Shown in pieces: positions 27,743-34,315 of a stretch of DNA of 34,433 bases. The translations under genes were made by a program, and so were the position numbers. The stretch comes from Candidatus Aenigmatarchaeota archaeon (GTDB lineage: Archaea > Aenigmatarchaeota > Aenigmatarchaeia > QMZP01), in NCBI GenBank assembly GCA_038999435.1, contig JAVZYR010000002.1:1-34433 (forward strand), given 5' to 3'. Each line of letters begins with the position of its first letter. The stretch's first letter is position 1. Below the pieces are notes generated by a model that did no database searches, was not told where the DNA came from, and saw only the letters and a program-made list of their open reading frames with translations.

Positions 27743-28885
27743 ATGGGAGACCTGCGTGAAAGCCTGTTAAAACAACAGCTTCATAAAGAGATTGCAACTG
27801 CTCGAACACTTGAGGCAGAGGGCAAACATAAAGAGGCTGCTTCTCACTATGTAAAGGCTGGTGCGATATACAGGCGTTTGGCTGTGAATTATCCAAAAGA
27901 AAAGGCAGAAGCTATGTTTTCTACTGCAATACAATATGAAAGTCTCGCAAATGTGATGAAAAACAAGGATGTGATACAGACCGCAAAAGAGACATCAGAA
28001 GGACTTTATGAAAAGTTAATGGAGAGCCTTATTGTTACAACAAAACCAGATACAGGATGGAATGATATAGGAGGATTAGAAGAGGCAAAAAAGGTGATAA
28101 AGGAAGCAATTATACTACCATTTATAAAATCAAAACCAGCATTTGTCAAGGCACCTCGCACAATTTTGCTCTATGGCCCACCGGGTACCGGTAAAACACT
28201 ACTTGCAAAGGCTGCTTGCAACTCTCTTGATGCTGCATTCTTTGAGGCAAAGTCATCAAATCTGCTTTCAAAATATTTTGGTGAATCAAACAAGCTTGTG
28301 GCTGCACTTTTCGGAAAGGCAAGAAAGCTACAGCCATCTGTCATATTTATTGATGAGCTTGACGCGCTGGCTGTTTCAAGAGGCAAGGATACATCAGAGG
28401 CAGGAAGGCGTGTGCTGAGTCAGTTTTTACAAGAGATAGAAGGCTTTAATACATCAGAAGATAAGGTTGTGGTAATGGGTGCAACGAACAAACCATGGGA
28501 CCTTGACGAGGCGATGATAAGTAGATTTAGAAGAAAGATATACGTGCCATTGCCAGACTATACAGCAAGATTAGATATATTCAGGATACATCTTCATGGT
28601 GCACAGTTAGCAAGCGATGCATTACTGCATGAACTGGCAAGAAAGACAGAGTTATGGTCAGGAAGAGATATCGCAAGCCTATGTGAAGAGGCAATCATGC
28701 ACATGGTAAGAGAGCAAAACCCATCCTTGCATGACCTGAGTGGGGTTCAGATTGAAAAATATAATCTGAAAACGAGACCGATCACAAAACAGGACTTTGA
28801 TTTCGCATTTAGCAAGATAAAACCGACAACAACACAAAAAGATATAGAAAAATATGAGAAATGGAAGGATGAATTTGGCGGTTAG
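27743..28885 (+). CDS. vps4: Vps4/CdvC-type AAA+ ATPase with N-terminal MIT domain
   Basis: MIT-like helices (ARTLEAEGKHKEAASHYVKAGAIYRRLA), Walker A GPPGTGKT, Walker B VIFIDELD, SRF, and a Vps4-type C-terminal end KWKDEFGG. Confidence 0.85.
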   Translation: MGDLRESLLKQQLHKEIATARTLEAEGKHKEAASHYVKAGAIYRRLAVNYPKEKAEAMFSTAIQYESLANVMKNKDVIQTAKETSEGLYEKLMESLIVTTKPDTGWNDIGGLEEAKKVIKEAIILPFIKSKPAFVKAPRTILLYGPPGTGKTLLAKAACNSLDAAFFEAKSSNLLSKYFGESNKLVAALFGKARKLQPSVIFIDELDALAVSRGKDTSEAGRRVLSQFLQEIEGFNTSEDKVVVMGATNKPWDLDEAMISRFRRKIYVPLPDYTARLDIFRIHLHGAQLASDALLHELARKTELWSGRDIASLCEEAIMHMVREQNPSLHDLSGVQIEKYNLKTRPITKQDFDFAFSKIKPTTTQKDIEKYEKWKDEFGG

Positions 28886-28939: not shown

Positions 28940-29242
28940 ATGAAAAAACAAGAAATCAAGTCTCAAGAAATCAAGTCTTTATATGAACAATGGTATAAAG
29001 AACATGTTTCAGGTGATGATGATAGAGGTTTGTATGGAATAGTATACTTATACTCTAAACAAAATTTTAGAGAAAAAATAAAAGGAATAGCTGATAATAC
29101 AATTCCAGGACAGGGCCAATATATCAATGATGAAATGGACAAATTCCTCAAAGAAATTGAAAGAGTGGCTAAAAAATTAGGACATGTAAAGAATGCTGAA
29201 TATATCTCACAAGCCATCAAAAAAATAGAAAATGATGATTAG
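28940..29242 (+). CDS. Hypothetical small protein
   Basis: 101 aa from the ATG (GTG at 28931 also possible). Starts with the tandem QEIKS-QEIKS. Low GC. No family recognised. Confidence 0.4.
   Translation: MKKQEIKSQEIKSLYEQWYKEHVSGDDDRGLYGIVYLYSKQNFREKIKGIADNTIPGQGQYINDEMDKFLKEIERVAKKLGHVKNAEYISQAIKKIENDD
28949..28978 (+). repeat. Perfect 2 x 15-nt tandem repeat (caagaaatcaagtct) inside the 5' end of the ORF
   Basis: Read directly from the sequence. It encodes QEIKSQEIKS. Confidence 0.9.
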
Positions 29243-30639
29243 ACCTTCAGCACATCCTTTGTAAAATAATCATACAAAAAAATCCTGAAATTTTCATCCT
29301 TTCTTATAGACCTGAGTATGGTAGCAGTATCAAGAATTTTAAAGCCTTCAGATATAGCCTTTGCAATATGAGAAGGTATACCTTTTGCCATAAGTATATC
29401 TGTCTTGTCACTCAGGCTATCATTCAGTTTACTTTTTGCATCCTGAAAAACCCTTGGTATCTCAGCAACCCAATGTTCTTCTTCAACCATAATCCTGCCA
29501 AGTGGTCTGTACTTTTTGAGAAATTCACTTGACCTATCAAGGACAAGAACAGCAGGCCCATGTACCTTTTTAACAGCAGGGAGCTTTGGTACCTGAAGTT
29601 CAAAAAATAGTATCGCGTTCTGATCATTCAACATGGTATTCCAACCAGTCACCTGAAATTCGTATTCCTGCAAAATATCAACAATCCTCTTTGCACATCT
29701 ACGCAATTGTGGCACAAGCACATCAGGTACCACATCAGGCCTTTTTATCACTAATCCGAGCAATTCAGTCCTTCTTGCTTTCAATATTTTATGTAATGTC
29801 GATACCTTGATGCTTAGTTTCTTTTTGAAGAAAAAACTTTCTGATGGTTTTTTGAGGAATGCCTTGCACACGCTTACAACCCTTATGAATTTTTCACAAG
29901 ACACAACAGCTGCAACATTTCTTTTTGGGTCAACAGGGTCTATGACAATCAGTGGATGATTTGGGAACATTTTCTTTACATCCTCAGGATTTTTGTGATG
30001 CTTTCCTGGATCTATGATAACCTTTCCTGGTTCCCAGTTAGATGCTGCCTCAAGCCATTTTTTAAAGTTGTTATAATATACAATCATAAGCTCACAGAGA
30101 TATCCTGAGAAGCCTTGCACAATCAAATCAGAACCATATATCCCATTAGCTTTTGCAAACTGTTTAAGTAACCTCACATCATTTTTTTGTTCTGGCTTGA
30201 GATTTGCAAGAAGCCATTGATTGTGAAAAGGCGTTCTGTCCACAGCTGATTTTATTTTCTCAGCTGATGCAACTTTATAGCATGGCACGATATCAACATC
30301 AAAGCCGTTTATGTTGGAACGCACATATGGATGCTCAGCGTATGCTATCTTGTATCTTCCTTTTAATCTTTTCACAATATCCGTGCCATATTCAAGGCCG
30401 AGCTTCTCAAGTTCCTGCCTTGGCACATTTTCTGGAAAAAGAAGGAAGATGTCAAATTCCTTTTTATCCTTCATCCATGTATCCCTGATGAATGAACCTG
30501 CAAGCGTGACATCTACGCCATGTGGTTTTGTTATATCCAATGCAGTGCGTAGCACCTTGTCTGTTATTTCTTTTATTTGCTTCTTTTCAGCAGGGGATGG
30601 TGTTATACGTCTCAGAACACGTTTTAAAATTTCATCCAT
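29239..30639 (-). CDS. cca: CCA-adding tRNA nucleotidyltransferase, archaeal class I
   Basis: 466 aa. LAGSFIRDTWMKDKKEFDIFLLFP (GS...DxD-type nucleotidyltransferase motif), YAEHPYV and RTPFH. Length and order are typical of archaeal Cca. Confidence 0.88.
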   Translation of the reverse strand: MDEILKRVLRRITPSPAEKKQIKEITDKVLRTALDITKPHGVDVTLAGSFIRDTWMKDKKEFDIFLLFPENVPRQELEKLGLEYGTDIVKRLKGRYKIAYAEHPYVRSNINGFDVDIVPCYKVASAEKIKSAVDRTPFHNQWLLANLKPEQKNDVRLLKQFAKANGIYGSDLIVQGFSGYLCELMIVYYNNFKKWLEAASNWEPGKVIIDPGKHHKNPEDVKKMFPNHPLIVIDPVDPKRNVAAVVSCEKFIRVVSVCKAFLKKPSESFFFKKKLSIKVSTLHKILKARRTELLGLVIKRPDVVPDVLVPQLRRCAKRIVDILQEYEFQVTGWNTMLNDQNAILFFELQVPKLPAVKKVHGPAVLVLDRSSEFLKKYRPLGRIMVEEEHWVAEIPRVFQDAKSKLNDSLSDKTDILMAKGIPSHIAKAISEGFKILDTATILRSIRKDENFRIFLYDYFTKDVLKV

Positions 30640-30739: not shown

Positions 30740-31465
30740 ATGCTTGAAACAATGGTTTTTGACGAGCCAATTACAAAGCTTGCCTCAGAACCTAAAACTT
30801 GGGTTATGAATGGGCTTGAAGGGCTCATCGAACTTGCATGTAGATATCGGAGGATTCCTGTAGTTGACAGAGGAGGCAACTTTAACGGTATCATAACTAC
30901 CACAGATATACTTCGGGGCATACGCGACATGAAAAACAAAAAAATTCAGGGTACATCAGCAAAAAATGTACCATCTCTAAATTCAGAATCAACATTTAAG
31001 GATGCGCTTTTGCTTTTTAAACAACATGGCAGGGGCGGGTATCCAATATTAGAGGGCAGGAAGCTTCTATCCATTATCACAGAATGGGATATGATAAAAT
31101 GGATAAGAGATGCGACAGGGATTAAAGTGAAAGACATCATGACACCAAGGGTGATTGTAGCAAAAAGTCATTGGCCAAACCATGCGATTGTTGATGCAAT
31201 GGCATTTGGGCCATATAGGAGGCTTCCAGTTGTGAAGAATGGCTTGCTGATTGGAATCCTAACACCTGCAGATTTGCTCAGCAGAGAAGGTAAAACAGCT
31301 GAGGAAATCATGACAAGGGATGTTGTAACAATAAAACCAAATAAAGATATAAGCGAGGCTGTAGAGATTATGAGAAAGAACAAAATTGGCGGACTTCCTG
31401 TGGTTGAACATGAAAGGATTTTGGGTATCATTACAGAAAGGGACATACTGGAGGCGATAGCATGA
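30740..31465 (+). CDS. CBS-domain protein (two CBS pairs)
   Basis: Repeated CBS signatures IPVVDRGGNFNGIITTTDIL, YPILEGRKLLSIITEWDM, LPVVKNGLLIGILTPADLL and LPVVEHERILGIITERDIL. A TTG at 30725 or ATG at 30752 are alternative starts. Confidence 0.8.
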   Translation: MLETMVFDEPITKLASEPKTWVMNGLEGLIELACRYRRIPVVDRGGNFNGIITTTDILRGIRDMKNKKIQGTSAKNVPSLNSESTFKDALLLFKQHGRGGYPILEGRKLLSIITEWDMIKWIRDATGIKVKDIMTPRVIVAKSHWPNHAIVDAMAFGPYRRLPVVKNGLLIGILTPADLLSREGKTAEEIMTRDVVTIKPNKDISEAVEIMRKNKIGGLPVVEHERILGIITERDILEAIA

Positions 31466-31884
31466 AAATGGAAAAATTGCTTAACGAAATGAAAGAATGT
31501 TTGGTGGTGGTTGAAGGCAAGAGGGATGCAAAGGCACTGGAAGCAATAGGATTAGATAATGTCATAACAATAAATGGCCAATCACTGCCAGCACTCATCT
31601 CAAGGATACAGAAAGAACACAAAGACAGAAAGGTCCTTATATTGACAGATTTTGACAAAAAAGGCAGGCAGATTTATGCTAAAATAACACGCATGCTTCA
31701 AGCATATAAAATACCTACAAATTCAGGTTTGAGATATGCCCTTAAAAGGGTTGTTTCAAATACTGGAAAGGTAAGGATTGAAGAAATAAAGGAGGTTGAT
31801 TTGTATGGCAAAGATAGCGCCTACTTCAATAAAATATATCATCCGTGCTCTCTTCAAAGCGGATGGAGTTGTAGAGAAGCCTGA
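31462..31884 (+). CDS. Small Toprim-domain protein (COG1658 / RNase M5-like)
   Basis: LVVVEGKRDAKALEAIG (catalytic Glu) and VLILTDFDKKGRQI (DxD). ATGA overlap with the CBS gene. The 3' end overlaps dnaG by 80 nt. Confidence 0.7.
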   Translation: MKMEKLLNEMKECLVVVEGKRDAKALEAIGLDNVITINGQSLPALISRIQKEHKDRKVLILTDFDKKGRQIYAKITRMLQAYKIPTNSGLRYALKRVVSNTGKVRIEEIKEVDLYGKDSAYFNKIYHPCSLQSGWSCREA

Positions 31885-32941
31885 TATAATAGGGGCTGTT
31901 TTTGGTCAAACAGAAGGATTAATGGGCCCTGAGCTAGACTTGAGAGAACTTCAAAAGACAGGTAGATTAGGTAGAATCGACGTTGTGGTAAAAACTGAAA
32001 AGGGTAAAACAGAAGGTGAGATTATCATACCTTCTGCGCTTGATGCATCAGAAACTGCACTCATTGCTGCTGCAATTGAAACAATTGATAGGATAGGTCC
32101 TTGCACTGCAGAGATAAGGATTGAGAGCATAGAAGATGTTCGGGCAACAAAAAGAGAGTATGTGATATCACGTGCAAAAGAGATAATGGAGAGATTTAAA
32201 ACAGCCGCACCTGATATATCAAAACTATCCGAGGAGATAAAAGAATCAGCACGGGCCGGTGAAATATCATCATATTATGGCCTTCCATGTGGGCCAGATA
32301 TACCAGAGACAGAGGAGATTATTGTTGTAGAAGGGCGGGCCGATGTCATAAATCTGTTAAGATATGGCATAAAGAATGCGATAGCAATTGAGGGCACATC
32401 TGTTCCAGAAGCTATAGTTCAGTTAGCAAAGGAAAAGAAAGTAACCCTTTTTATAGACGGCGACAGAGGCGGAGAGCTTATAGCAAAGGAGTTTGAACAG
32501 ACGGCAAAAGTGGATTTTGTAGCTGTTGCGCCTGCAGGAAAAGAGGTTGAAGAGCTGACACAGAAAGAAGTTCTTAAGGCACTAAGGGACAAGATACCTG
32601 CTGAAAAATTTTTTAAAAAAGTCAAACCAGAACAAAAGATTGCACAAAAGGCATACATAAAAGATGCGGAATTTTATAAAAAAATACTTGAAGAGCTTGT
32701 TGGTACAAGGGCAGCATGTATATATGATGAAAAACTTAGGTTGCTTGGAAGGGTGCCAATCAAAGAGCTTGAGGGTAACTTAAAAACGATTGAAAAGCCA
32801 TATCTTGTGATAATGGATGGCAAGATTGATTTCAGGACGGCATTGGCAGCAAGGCGTGCCGGTGTTAAGATCATTGTCGGCACTGATAAGGAACAAATAG
32901 GATTGCCGATAAAGATTATAACAAAACAAGAATTAGGATAG
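31805..32941 (+). CDS. dnaG: Archaeal DnaG primase-like protein (exosome-associated)
   Basis: ATG lies 9 nt after AGGAGG. KYIIRALFKADGVVEKPDIIGAVFGQTEGL, Toprim IIVVEGRADVINLLRYG and FIDGDRGGELI. Confidence 0.92.
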   Translation: MAKIAPTSIKYIIRALFKADGVVEKPDIIGAVFGQTEGLMGPELDLRELQKTGRLGRIDVVVKTEKGKTEGEIIIPSALDASETALIAAAIETIDRIGPCTAEIRIESIEDVRATKREYVISRAKEIMERFKTAAPDISKLSEEIKESARAGEISSYYGLPCGPDIPETEEIIVVEGRADVINLLRYGIKNAIAIEGTSVPEAIVQLAKEKKVTLFIDGDRGGELIAKEFEQTAKVDFVAVAPAGKEVEELTQKEVLKALRDKIPAEKFFKKVKPEQKIAQKAYIKDAEFYKKILEELVGTRAACIYDEKLRLLGRVPIKELEGNLKTIEKPYLVIMDGKIDFRTALAARRAGVKIIVGTDKEQIGLPIKIITKQELG

Positions 32942-32972: not shown

Positions 32973-34028
32973 ATGGTAGGCATACCATTGTATTCGGAAA
33001 TAAGATTGCCACCAGTTTTGAACAATTTGCAGCTTGGTTCGTTTCTTTACTATTTGAAATGGCAAAATGATAGACATGATTTGGAGAGAATAGCAAACTC
33101 ATTTAAAAAAGGAATTTCAAATCATCTGCTTGAGAAATCAAAGCCGCCAATAGAAGAGGTACTTGAATTTGGGGGATTAAAAATAAAGGTACTTTTGGAG
33201 GAGACAGAAGGTAGCATATCATATGAAAAGGTATTACAGGAATTAAAAAAATATTTAAATCACCTCACCGAGGAATGGCAAAACCAAAGACTTAAAAAGA
33301 ATTATAGAACTATAGATGGTTCGCTTTATATTGATTTGAAATTGGTTGAAAAGAAAATTGAAAAGCTAAAATATGAAAACAAAAAGGAACCAGGTATAAG
33401 AACAGAGCTAAAACTTATTGAACCATTACCATCCATACCAGATAATATAAAATTTATATTTGAGCATGATTATTCAGTACCATCTGAAACAAATGCAAGA
33501 TACTGGATGGAGAGCAATGAAATGCTATGTGAAGGAGAAAAAAGATGTATTGGATATTATGATGAGAGTGGCAATCGTGTTAAAAGGTTTAAAGAGATAT
33601 TATACGAAGAATCGCTGAATCTTTTAGGAGAAGAACCAAAGCATCTTGTAAGAGTTCCATACGCATTTGATAGCATTATTTTTATACATCAACTTGAGCC
33701 AAGGGAAAGAAAAGAATATTCAAAGATTATTTCAGCACTATCCAAAAAAGCACCTAAAAATATAACTCAAAAAAGTAACTTTGGTGATATCCAAAAAATA
33801 AAACTGATAATGCTAGAAAATGCAGAAAATAAATTAAAGGAACAAAAATTAATCGATGATGAATTTTTGAGTTGCTATGAACCGAAGTTGATTAATGGAA
33901 ATATTTTTATAAAACTTGATGGTTTGTCAAAAAAGATTGAAGATTATGAACAAGAGTTTAAATCATCTTACATCGAACAAAATCTTTATATAAATGCCAT
34001 AGATAGGGCTGTTTTTGTAAATAAATGA
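32973..34028 (+). CDS. Hypothetical protein with an internal duplicated module
   Basis: 351-aa ORF with very low GC. aa 113-135 TIDGSLYIDLKLVEKKIEKLKYE resemble aa 306-328 LINGNIFIKLDGLSKKIEDYEQE. No family recognised. The stop is 2 nt from the tRNA 3' end. Confidence 0.5.
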   Translation: MVGIPLYSEIRLPPVLNNLQLGSFLYYLKWQNDRHDLERIANSFKKGISNHLLEKSKPPIEEVLEFGGLKIKVLLEETEGSISYEKVLQELKKYLNHLTEEWQNQRLKKNYRTIDGSLYIDLKLVEKKIEKLKYENKKEPGIRTELKLIEPLPSIPDNIKFIFEHDYSVPSETNARYWMESNEMLCEGEKRCIGYYDESGNRVKRFKEILYEESLNLLGEEPKHLVRVPYAFDSIIFIHQLEPRERKEYSKIISALSKKAPKNITQKSNFGDIQKIKLIMLENAENKLKEQKLIDDEFLSCYEPKLINGNIFIKLDGLSKKIEDYEQEFKSSYIEQNLYINAIDRAVFVNK

Positions 34029-34029
34029 G

Positions 34030-34282
34030 TGGGCCCGCCCGGATTCTCTCTGGAAACCCTCAAGGTTTCCAGCCATCCGGGAGCTGTTCCGCTTCGCTCC
34101 ACAACGCTTTCCGGAAGCGGTCAGCTCCTTCACAAAGTCAGACATCATTCAGAGCATTTATGCTCGGTGCGCGTCTGGCTTTGTGTTTCCGCGAGCGCTT
34201 TCTTCTTGAAAGAAAGGGCTCTTTGAACCGGGGTCACGGGCTCCCGAAGCCCGGATGCTAGACCAAGCTACACCACGGGCCC
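34030..34282 (-). tRNA. tRNA-Pro (anticodon CGG at 34244-34246) interrupted by a 178-nt intervening sequence in the T-loop
   Basis: Minus-strand 5' exon: GGGCCCG UG GUGU AGCUUGGUCUA GCAU C CGGGC UUCGGGA GCCCG UGAC CCCGG UUCAAA. 3' exon: U CCGGG CGGGCCC A. All four stems pair perfectly or with G-U pairs. G37 and A73 are present and no CCA is encoded. Confidence 0.8.
34044..34221 (-). other. Non-canonical tRNA intron / intervening structured RNA (boundaries +/-2 nt because of an A run)
   Basis: GC-rich relative to everything around it. Paper folding gives hairpins at RNA nt 67-85, 118-131, 155-203 and 212-232. The ORFs called across it on both strands are spurious. Confidence 0.6.
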
Positions 34283-34315
34283 ATAAAATTTTTAATTTTT
34301 TTGCTTATTATTTTT

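Follow-up and report, generated by a model that had tools for sequence, protein, structure and literature searches.

The stretch of DNA analysed here, 34,433 nucleotides of contig JAVZYR010000002.1 (assembly GCA_038999435.1) and called the window in what follows, carries a tRNA-Pro(CGG) gene whose T-loop is split by a long insert. The gene lies on the minus strand at positions 34282-34030 and is made of three pieces: a 61-nt 5' part, a 178-nt insert and a 14-nt 3' part.

A tRNA-Pro(CGG) gene split in its T-loop

The 5' exon (34222-34282, minus strand) covers tRNA positions 1-59, as judged from the sequence, from ARAGORN on both the raw and the spliced sequence, and from alignment with orthologous and intron-less genes. 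It reads GGGCCCG UG GUGU AGCUUGGUCU(A) GCAU C CGGGC UUCGGGA GCCCG UGAC CCCGG UUCAAA and supplies the 5' strand of the acceptor stem, a D arm whose stem is flanked by wobble pairs (G10-U25 and U13-G22), an anticodon arm (CGGGC-UUCGGGA-GCCCG, with anticodon CGG and G37), a 4-nt variable loop, the T-stem strand CCCGG and the T-loop nucleotides UUCAAA. The 3' exon (34030-34043, minus strand) brings U60, the T-stem strand CCGGG, the acceptor strand CGGGCCC and the discriminator base A73. It then runs into CUC, so no CCA is encoded. A gene for an archaeal class I CCA-adding enzyme (29239-30639, minus strand; Pfam tRNA_NucTransf2, CAA_C and NTP_transf_2) lies 3.4 kb from this CCA-less tRNA gene.

When the exons are joined in silico, ARAGORN recognises a tRNA-Pro(cgg) of exactly 75 bases, with a flawless cloverleaf and 69.3% GC, i.e., the gene is interrupted but complete. 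Given the raw window, ARAGORN also calls a tRNA-Pro(cgg), with its 3' end misplaced (34191-34283), and Rfam at its gathering score has no match at the locus (only a truncated tRNA match, E = 2.6). The register of the junction is ambiguous over an A run, from 57/58 to 59/60, and bulge-helix-bulge (BHB) geometry picks 59/60, the sole register compatible with the bulge rule (junction UUCAAA/.../U CCGGG). An insertion between T-loop nucleotides 59 and 60 is of the class found in ARMAN-2 (Candidatus Micrarchaeum), and 59/60 is an already documented intron site in the DPANN archaea. Much of this had been read from the bare letters in an earlier note on this DNA, namely a tRNA-Pro(CGG) split in the T-loop, textbook in form once joined, with A73 and no encoded CCA, and an insert away from 37/38 that is far longer than usual and highly structured. 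These descriptions stand, including the A-run ambiguity that the note had pointed out.

The locus is present on two NCBI assemblies: L001 (contig JAWAAG010000002.1, GCA_038999245.1), which contains the window, and L002 (GCA_039091665.1). The two are 98.3-99.3% identical over 12 kb, and they share the tRNA-Pro locus without a single change. Such identity over 253 nt is not significant at 1% divergence, where about 2.5 differences would be expected. We consider this to be, probably, a real and functional gene.

Sequence and fold of the intron

The 178-nt intron (34044-34221, minus strand) has a GC content of 53%, while the window averages 36%. Of all 178-nt stretches in the window, the one richest in GC (57%) begins at 34077, inside the tRNA-Pro gene, in agreement with the earlier note. 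The intron has a minimum free energy of -75.7 kcal/mol, with z = -6.13 against dinucleotide shuffles (0/200 shuffles were equally stable), and the whole precursor folds with z = -5.87. The fold consists of four hairpins joined by short linkers, at intron nt 1-29, 37-91, 94-142 and 150-172, where that note had placed them.

The first 36 nt, which we call module 1 (34186-34221, minus strand like all parts of the intron), form a helix directly 3' of the 5' splice site: the hairpin GAGC-C-CUUUCUUUC-AAG-GAAGAAAG-C-GCUC, followed by GCGGAAA. Hairpin 2 (intron nt 37-91, 34131-34185) is closed by CACAAAG...CUUUGUG and has an internal loop and the apical hairpin GAGCA-UAAA-UGCUC. It is placed exactly between modules 1 and 2, which adjoin each other in the intron of an initiator tRNA gene described below, and BLAST found no copy of it elsewhere in the fetched sequences. 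Hairpin 3 (intron nt 94-142, 34080-34128) is a rod built from GGAGCUG/CAGCUCC and CCGCUUC/GAAGCGG, with module 2 (AAGGAGCUGACCGCUUCC) as its 5' strand. Hairpin 4 (intron nt 150-172, 34050-34072) reads CUGGAAACC(U)-UGA-(G)GGUUUCCAG, and its 5' strand holds UGGAAA, which is also the 3' end of the 10-nt intron found at this site in the closest relative, L003. The coding potential of the intron is nil, with short frames only.

A fold of this stability led the earlier note to argue for a selected RNA, i.e., for an intron that is spliced but whose released 178-nt RNA, linear or circular, is itself maintained, e.g., as a scaffold or guide. A role as regulator would fall under the same reading. The very stable and self-contained fold speaks for this, as does a GC content of 53% in a genome of 36% GC, where unselected sequence should drift towards AT. 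The intron also has no T run longer than 3, it is identical in two assemblies that differ by about 1% elsewhere, and circular RNAs made from tRNA introns are stable in other systems (PMC4536317). Two of these points fall away on inspection: the identity is not significant, as stated above, and 17% of random 178-nt windows also lack T4, so we rejected the depletion of T runs as a sign of selection on read-through.

Other observations point away from a selected RNA. In the nearest relative the insert is a mere 10 nt long, the window's intron is pieced together from modules that also occur in other tRNA introns, and a sister intron loses 61- and 51-nt modules between strains without harm. The intron belongs to no Rfam family. 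A box C/D search of the intron found one near-C box and three CUGA (two in hairpin 2 and the third in hairpin 3), in no valid arrangement. Inspection of the intron by eye showed neither an H/ACA-like ACA box nor a kink-turn. Hairpin 2 was also considered by hand as an H/ACA element and as a kink-turn, and both readings were rejected: there is no ACA box after its stem, and there are no tandem G-A pairs with a proper non-canonical stem. The tRNA-Trp intron of Haloferax volcanii, about 100 nt long, encodes a box C/D guide RNA. Like it, the window's intron is a long and structured archaeal tRNA intron; whereas the Haloferax intron is functional before or after excision, the window's intron lacks a C/D/C'/D' arrangement, and its body is not conserved in the nearest relative. 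We therefore do not follow the earlier note here: a role of its own for the released RNA seems unlikely, and most likely it has none.

Length and structure, both unusual for a tRNA intron, could also suggest a self-splicing (group I or group II) intron, another ribozyme, or a known gene for a small RNA inside the tRNA gene. However, 178 nt is too short for group I or group II, Rfam offers no family for the locus (E up to 10) or for the sister intron (E up to 1), and BLAST of the intron against phage and plasmid collections gave no match. Size and Rfam together exclude this reading. The earlier note had allowed that the insert might prove to be a known RNA family or mobile element, and the same Rfam, phage and plasmid searches returned neither.

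Predicted splice junctions

In the standard BHB motif, the last two bases of the intron together with the first base of the 3' exon form a 3-nt bulge beside the stem; immediately upstream of those two bases, the intron pairs with loop nucleotides one to four. The T arm and the anticodon arm offer the same geometry: both have a 5-bp stem and a 7-nt loop, and 59/60 and 37/38 both follow the sixth loop nucleotide. At its 3' junction, the window's intron has an hBH half-motif, i.e., the T-stem, an A-A-U60 bulge and a 3-bp helix (U54-G, U55-A, C56-G). This is made by the intron tail AGAGAA (34044-34049), whose GAG pairs with U54, U55 and C56 and whose final AA joins U60 in the bulge. The 5' junction is relaxed, with A58-A59 and the first intron base lying between the short helix and hairpin 1. 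Taken together, the junctions form a relaxed hBH/BHL motif, and the UUC/GAG pairing with its AAU bulge, which the earlier note had proposed along with a relaxed 5' site, is the best 3' half-motif available.

The same 3' arrangement recurs in related contigs, where 7/9 distinct T-loop introns (the window's included) show a helix of 3-4 bp with UUCA and a 3-nt bulge ending in U60. All four pairs with U54-A57 form in L003, L022, the initiator tRNA gene and both L021 genes, with bulges of AAU, ACU or AGU; three of the four form in L010 and in the window. The two T-loop introns of L024 do not fit this register and are the exceptions among the nine.

Two known systems are useful for comparison. The first is the canonical archaeal hBHBh' intron at 37/38 (Marck and Grosjean 2003). 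Both kinds of intron follow loop nucleotide six where a 5-bp stem carries a 7-nt loop, the 3' cut of the window's intron would likewise fall two nucleotides past a short exon-intron helix, and related contigs carry module 1 at 37/38 of tRNA-Pro, tRNA-Thr and tRNA-Gly. The window's intron differs in its T-loop position, in a central helix of 3 bp plus a mismatch, and in an intron-side outer helix that is a local hairpin, which leaves the motif unclosed.

The second is ARMAN-2, in which a pre-tRNA-Cys(GCA) with a 59/60 intron and a relaxed hBH/BHL motif is cleaved in vitro by the organism's own endonuclease, and a pre-tRNA-Pro(GGG) carries introns at both 53/54 and 59/60 (PMC3239211). The likeness extends to a DPANN host, the 59/60 site, the Pro isoacceptor family affected, and a relaxed motif that is well formed only in the bulge and helix on the T-stem side. 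The differences are that the ARMAN-2 introns are drawn as a simple short hairpin or loop, whereas here there is a 178-nt domain of four hairpins built from shared modules, and that cleavage was assayed there, whereas the window's intron is known from sequence alone. Diverse DPANN endonucleases with a specificity loop have been linked to heavily disrupted tRNA genes (PMC5829648).

The intron site in related genomes

Among the relatives available, L003 is the closest: its DnaG is 73% identical, it is partly syntenic with the window, and it carries a tRNA-Pro(CGG) gene in the same neighbourhood. That gene has a 10-nt intron, UUUUUGGAAA, at exactly the same site; when the UGGA of this intron is paired with U54-A57, AAU is left as the bulge. 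A gene identical to that of L003 is also present on L016, an independent JGI contig. Once spliced, the window and L003 tRNAs differ by a compensatory change in the anticodon stem (G-C to A-U) and by one variable-loop base, and by nothing else. It follows that tRNA-type constraint acts on both genes. The next-closest DnaG homologues (P0004, P0030, P0006 and P0091) come from contigs with lost synteny or have no DNA available.

A metagenome scan with the lineage-specific D-arm sequence gathered 23 related tRNA-Pro loci, and inserts are present in 15 of them. T-loop inserts at the same position measure 52 nt in L010, L013 and L029, 38 nt in L022, 33 nt in L021, and approximately 54 and 72 nt in two adjacent tRNA-Pro genes of L024. 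Many of the related tRNA-Pro genes also have long introns at 37/38 or 53/54, and every joined sequence tested was called a tRNA by ARAGORN. On L007 (~2449-2260, minus strand), a tRNA-Pro(CGG) gene has apparently two anticodon-loop inserts, one after U33 and one after G37, and its joined sequence is called tRNA-Pro(cgg).

These comparisons bear on whether the gene in the window works at all. It could be a pseudogene, i.e., a tRNA-Pro(CGG) inactivated by a repetitive insertion while another tRNA-Pro does the decoding, and the lack of a strict BHB and the failure of standard finders on the gene would fit that. However, its exons are flawless and differ from the orthologue only as just described, the insert occupies the one T-loop position that mimics 37/38, and the UUC-pairing tail and AAU bulge are kept as in relatives. 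The gene is also identical in two assemblies, and the initiator tRNA of the same genome, an essential type, bears the same kind of intron. With flawless and compensating exons, a shared junction motif and such an initiator tRNA, a pseudogene is highly improbable.

A family of introns that share module 1

Parts of the window's intron recur in other tRNA genes. In BLAST against the fetched sequences, intron nt 1-36 are 36/36 identical to the start of the T-loop intron of the initiator tRNA gene (L001 16867-16902), and that intron has a further 29-nt copy of module 1 at L001 16932-16960. Intron nt 91-109, which correspond to module 2, match 18/19 at L001 16903-16921 in the same intron; module 2 recurs there (L001 16906 and 17002) and in the 37/38 introns of L010, L022 and L007. 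In L010 and in both tRNA-Pro genes of L024, the T-loop intron likewise opens with module 1, as do the 37/38 introns of the L022 tRNA-Pro(CGG) and the L024 tRNA-Thr(GGU). The intron is therefore one of a lineage-specific family, in which module 1 stands at the 5' ends of 37/38 and 59/60 introns of Pro, iMet, Thr and Gly tRNAs, i.e., similar introns are found in different tRNAs and at different positions.

The architecture of module 1 is constant: a 4-bp helix, a C-C mismatch, a helix of a U-tract with an A-tract, a variable tip and, after 1-3 nt, an invariant CGGAAA. The basal helix varies in sequence while remaining paired (GAGC/GCUC, UGAC/GUCA, ACAC/GUGU, GGAC/GUCU, UAAC/GUUA and AGAC/GUCU). 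In an alignment of seven sequences, 63/63 cells are paired and four pairs are changed on both sides; covariation is 0.519, against 0.187 for shuffled alignments (0/500 reach the observed value), and slid controls pair at no more than 57%. Extending the set to 11 distinct copies leaves the helix 100% paired, now with five pairs changed on both sides, a covariation of 0.533 against 0.213 (again 0/500) and slid controls at no more than 59%. Covariation, which the earlier note had proposed as a check, is thus present in the module-1 helix; hairpins 2-4 had no orthologue with which to compare them.

We built a covariance model, R1, from the 7-sequence alignment, and it gives the window's module 1 a score of 35.9 bits. 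Outside the training set, it matches an IMG/VR contig, L038, and, on L021, a tRNA-Gly(UCC) gene at the 5' end of its 37/38 intron. The module-1 helix always begins 0-1 nt past the 5' splice site, so its most economical role would be that of the intron-side helix of the splice motif, and 9/11 copies are in the sense orientation and exactly at 5' splice sites. CGGA is complementary to UUCG (nt 32-35 of tRNA-Pro CGG) and largely to UUCA of the T-loop, and one intron could therefore fit both sites. The CGGAAA is invariant though it lies far from the 3' splice site. An attractive alternative to a single 178-nt intron would be nested introns, with module 1 as a 36-nt mini-intron and a second intron of 142 nt at the same junction.

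Outside the sequences gathered here, the family left few traces. Nothing like module 1 has a match in Rfam or a description in the literature searched, and a limited literature search found no description of long modular introns in Aenigmatarchaeota. In exact-pattern scans of a species-representative genome collection, neither the 61-nt 5' exon nor a 24-nt core of module 1 had a match, and a metagenome scan for that core also had none. Of eight viral-contig matches to GCAAAAGCGTNNACGGAAAA, seven were rejected: they score only 13-17 bits with R1 and sit in what appears, from conservation across the seven contigs, to be a conserved coding stretch.

Two smaller sequence features of these introns may be mentioned. 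The loops of the module hairpins, in the window (34204-34212) and in related introns, have the sequence UUCAAGAA or UUCAAAAA, which is similar to that of the T-loop (UUCAAAU). In addition, arms of nearby exons reappear in degenerate form within some introns, e.g., the L022 intron has GGAGCUUCGCUCC where its own anticodon arm reads GGAGCUUCGGGAGCUCC.

The initiator tRNA and module turnover

The initiator-type tRNA-Met(CAU) gene spans 406 nt at L001 16730-17135 (plus strand), 5.6 kb beyond the window's right end, and lies at 9195-9488 in L002. It reads AGCGGGG...CCCCGCUA and has three G-C pairs in its anticodon stem. Three inserts interrupt it: at 14/15, an intron of 46 nt that has a strict H-B-h' motif and includes a copy of the spliced junction GAGCA/GCCU; approximately 30 nt in the D region, before the 3' strand of the D-stem (boundaries approximate); and a 255-nt T-loop intron at 59/60, the one that starts with the same 36 nt as the window's intron. 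In L002, this T-loop intron is 143 nt long, while the exons are identical. The difference is made up of two indels, 61 and 51 nt, each of them whole modules bounded by direct repeats. Modules in this sister intron are therefore turning over at the level of strains.

Two further cases come from related contigs. In the tRNA-Thr(GGU) gene of L024 (2724-2463, minus strand), the 190-nt intron at 37/38 opens with module 1 and includes 3.8 copies of a 42-nt repeat unit (99% identity). The tRNA-Gly(UCC) gene of L021 (~727-430, minus strand) is 306 nt long with four inserts: ~51 nt in the D/26 region, ~118 nt at 37/38 (module 1 first), 31 nt at 53/54 and 34 nt at 59/60. Its joined exons are called tRNA-Gly by ARAGORN. 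For reference, protein-spliced tRNA introns are given as <100 nt in a review (PMC4033280), and the number of introns per archaeal tRNA gene as three at most (PMC8450103).

In the Thermoproteales, the occurrence of similar introns in different tRNAs has been interpreted as transposition (PMC4090602). Those families (Fujishima et al. 2010, per PMC4090602 and PMC4033280) are like the present one in that they imply recent spread and leave genes heavily disrupted. They differ in belonging to another phylum; moreover, the introns described here are several times longer, grow by duplication and insertion of modules (including tandem arrays), and share a defined, covarying hairpin followed by the invariant CGGAAA.

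Possible movement at the DNA level

On L012 (176-371, plus strand) and L038 (~880-690, minus strand; a predicted viral contig), a complete tRNA comes first, then a spacer of 111 or 58 nt, and last a directly repeated tRNA 3' part that starts at G53. The spacers hold module 1 in antisense, with R1 scores of 44.7 and 45.7 bits, and the pattern resembles an att-type duplication around a tiny insert. Antisense copies together with duplicated 3' parts hint that the module can be moved or rearranged at the DNA level.

One could go further and regard the module as a miniature mobile element that targets the near-palindromic DNA of tRNA loops, with sense landings tolerated through splicing (so this reading is compatible with splicing). 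Beyond the copies just outside the L012 and L038 tRNA genes, it would be consistent with the identity of module copies within a genome, with module-sized indels and tandem arrays, and with reviews that treat the transposition of archaeal tRNA introns as DNA-level (PMC4090602). Integration of mobile elements into tRNA 3' halves has been proposed as a route to disrupted tRNA genes in a population study of Caldiarchaeum (PMC3293823), and Randau and Soll put forward a related idea on mobile elements and disrupted tRNA genes (cited in PMC4033280).

The window itself looks different. Whereas L012 and L038 have a tRNA, a short module-1 insert and a duplicated 3' part, the window's gene has a single 3' part (TCCGGGCGGGCCCA occurs once in 21 kb) and behaves as an intron-bearing gene, not as an element integrated at an att site. 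It has no terminal inverted repeats or target duplication, and its neighbours are an orphan open reading frame (ORF) and a DnaG-like gene, with no recombinase, transposase or integrase adjacent. The predominance of sense copies at 5' splice sites (9/11) fits RNA-level selection as well, and the two antisense cases could be scars of rearrangement. On balance we find a DNA-level element of this kind rather doubtful as the origin of the window's insert, though less so than a function for the released RNA.

Host and neighbouring genes

The gene content of the window is archaeal and includes a class I CCA-adding enzyme, DnaG-like Toprim proteins, a Vps4-like ATPase and an anaerobic ribonucleotide reductase. 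Nearly every named homologue of the DnaG-like protein is from Candidatus Aenigmatarchaeota/Aenigmarchaeota, at 50-58% identity. The host is probably a DPANN archaeon of the Aenigmatarchaeota, as judged from the annotation names of homologues and not from a phylogeny. The metagenomes of relatives come from hot-spring sediment and a hydrothermal vent, and the GC content of the tRNA exons (69%, against 36% for the genome) suggests a thermophile.

The gene for the Vps4/CdvC-like AAA ATPase of this putative DPANN genome lies at 27743-28885 (plus strand). The DnaG-like Toprim protein is encoded by two overlapping ORFs on the plus strand, 31462-31884 and 31796-32941, of ~138 and 378 aa, both with Toprim. 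This split is probably not an assembly error, because the gene is split likewise in L003.

Two ORFs flank the tRNA gene: one of 351 aa in the window (32973-34028, plus strand) and one of 371 aa on L001 (11344-12459, plus strand). Neither has a Pfam domain or a homologue outside the species in a large protein collection, and a flanking orphan protein is present on both L001 and L002. The 351-aa ORF stops 2 nt from the 3' end of the tRNA. The 371-aa ORF is called from 33 nt upstream of the tRNA 5' end, which is the expected place of the tRNA promoter.

Interpretation and proposed mechanism

We favour the explanation that the insert is a protein-spliced, relaxed-BHB intron at 59/60 of a functional tRNA-Pro(CGG), belonging to a spreading family that accretes modules, and that the released RNA has no function; we put the probability of this at roughly 0.75. 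Archaeal tRNA introns of this kind are known, and the present one is extreme in length; it does not represent a new type of RNA gene.

Several points weigh against this explanation. The strict hBHBh' motif is absent: a motif scan found none closed on both real junctions, just as the earlier note could draw no strict 3-4-3 BHB. The central helix of the window's motif contains an A57xA mismatch, and the 5' site forms a multi-helix junction in place of a closed BHB, because the opposite strand is discontinuous (a local hairpin). The sole strict-looking 5' half (AGCC/GGCU with UUCA/GGAA) needs hairpins 1 and 4 to be melted. RNAfold slightly favours other registers for UUC, i.e., GAA at intron nt 33-35, or nt 176-178 with a 1-nt bulge, and these competing registers are also allowed when the tRNA stems are enforced. 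No splicing endonuclease gene was found among the 20 of ~35 window ORFs that were scanned or in the gene listing of L001. The high GC content and z = -6 could also reflect selection for an RNA function, and a second intact tRNA-Pro(CGG) elsewhere in the genome is conceivable.

If the intron is spliced by protein, we envisage the following course. The gene would be transcribed as a 253-nt precursor, in which the four GC-rich hairpins would fold locally and draw the ends of the T-loop together. U54-U55-C56 would pair with G-A-G near the 3' end of the intron, leaving A-A-U60 as a 3-nt bulge stacked on the T-stem, and A58-A59 with the first intron base would lie between the short helix and the module-1 hairpin as a relaxed 5' site. 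A splicing endonuclease of broad specificity would then cut after A59 and before U60, and an RtcB-type ligase would join the exons and probably circularise the intron; both splicing by the host's endonuclease and circularisation are predictions. The CCA-adding enzyme encoded 3.4 kb away would complete the tRNA. The stable hairpins probably serve to keep so long an insert compact and competent for splicing in a thermophile. A long insert also needs such local hairpins if it is to leave the folding of the tRNA undisturbed and have its splice sites meet at high temperature.

Introns of the family would grow as hairpin modules are inserted or duplicated. Members would spread from one site to the other, 37/38 or 59/60, because both sites are sixth in a 7-nt loop that starts with UU or CUU and sits on a 5-bp stem. 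In the anticodon loops concerned, the start is UU in tRNA-Pro and tRNA-Thr and CUU in tRNA-Gly UCC.

Significance

The origin and spread of protein-spliced tRNA introns is an open question in the field, and this lineage offers a natural series with which to address it. At one site of tRNA-Pro the insert measures 0, 10, 33-72 or 178 nt, and in the initiator tRNA 143 or 255 nt in near-identical strains. Because a covarying module occurs at both canonical and T-loop positions, the gain, hopping and growth of introns become testable within one lineage.

There are also practical consequences. DPANN tRNA complements will look incomplete, because standard finders miss or mis-call such genes, and R1 (or its motif) could recover tRNA genes that have been missed. 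If the hairpin-rich excised RNAs are stable circles, they would be an abundant and unexplored class of RNA in these cells.

Finally, and more tentatively, module 1 may define an undescribed mobile intron element of Aenigmatarchaeota-like DPANN archaea, one that colonises 7-nt loops starting with UU or CUU, moves at the DNA level and accretes modules. If that is true, the element targets the anticodon loops of tRNA-Pro, tRNA-Thr and tRNA-Gly as well as the universal T-loop, and it builds the longest protein-spliced tRNA introns of this analysis (178-255 nt) and genes with four introns. By splitting the region from the T-loop to the 3' end, it may also shield tRNA genes from integrases that use this region as an att site.

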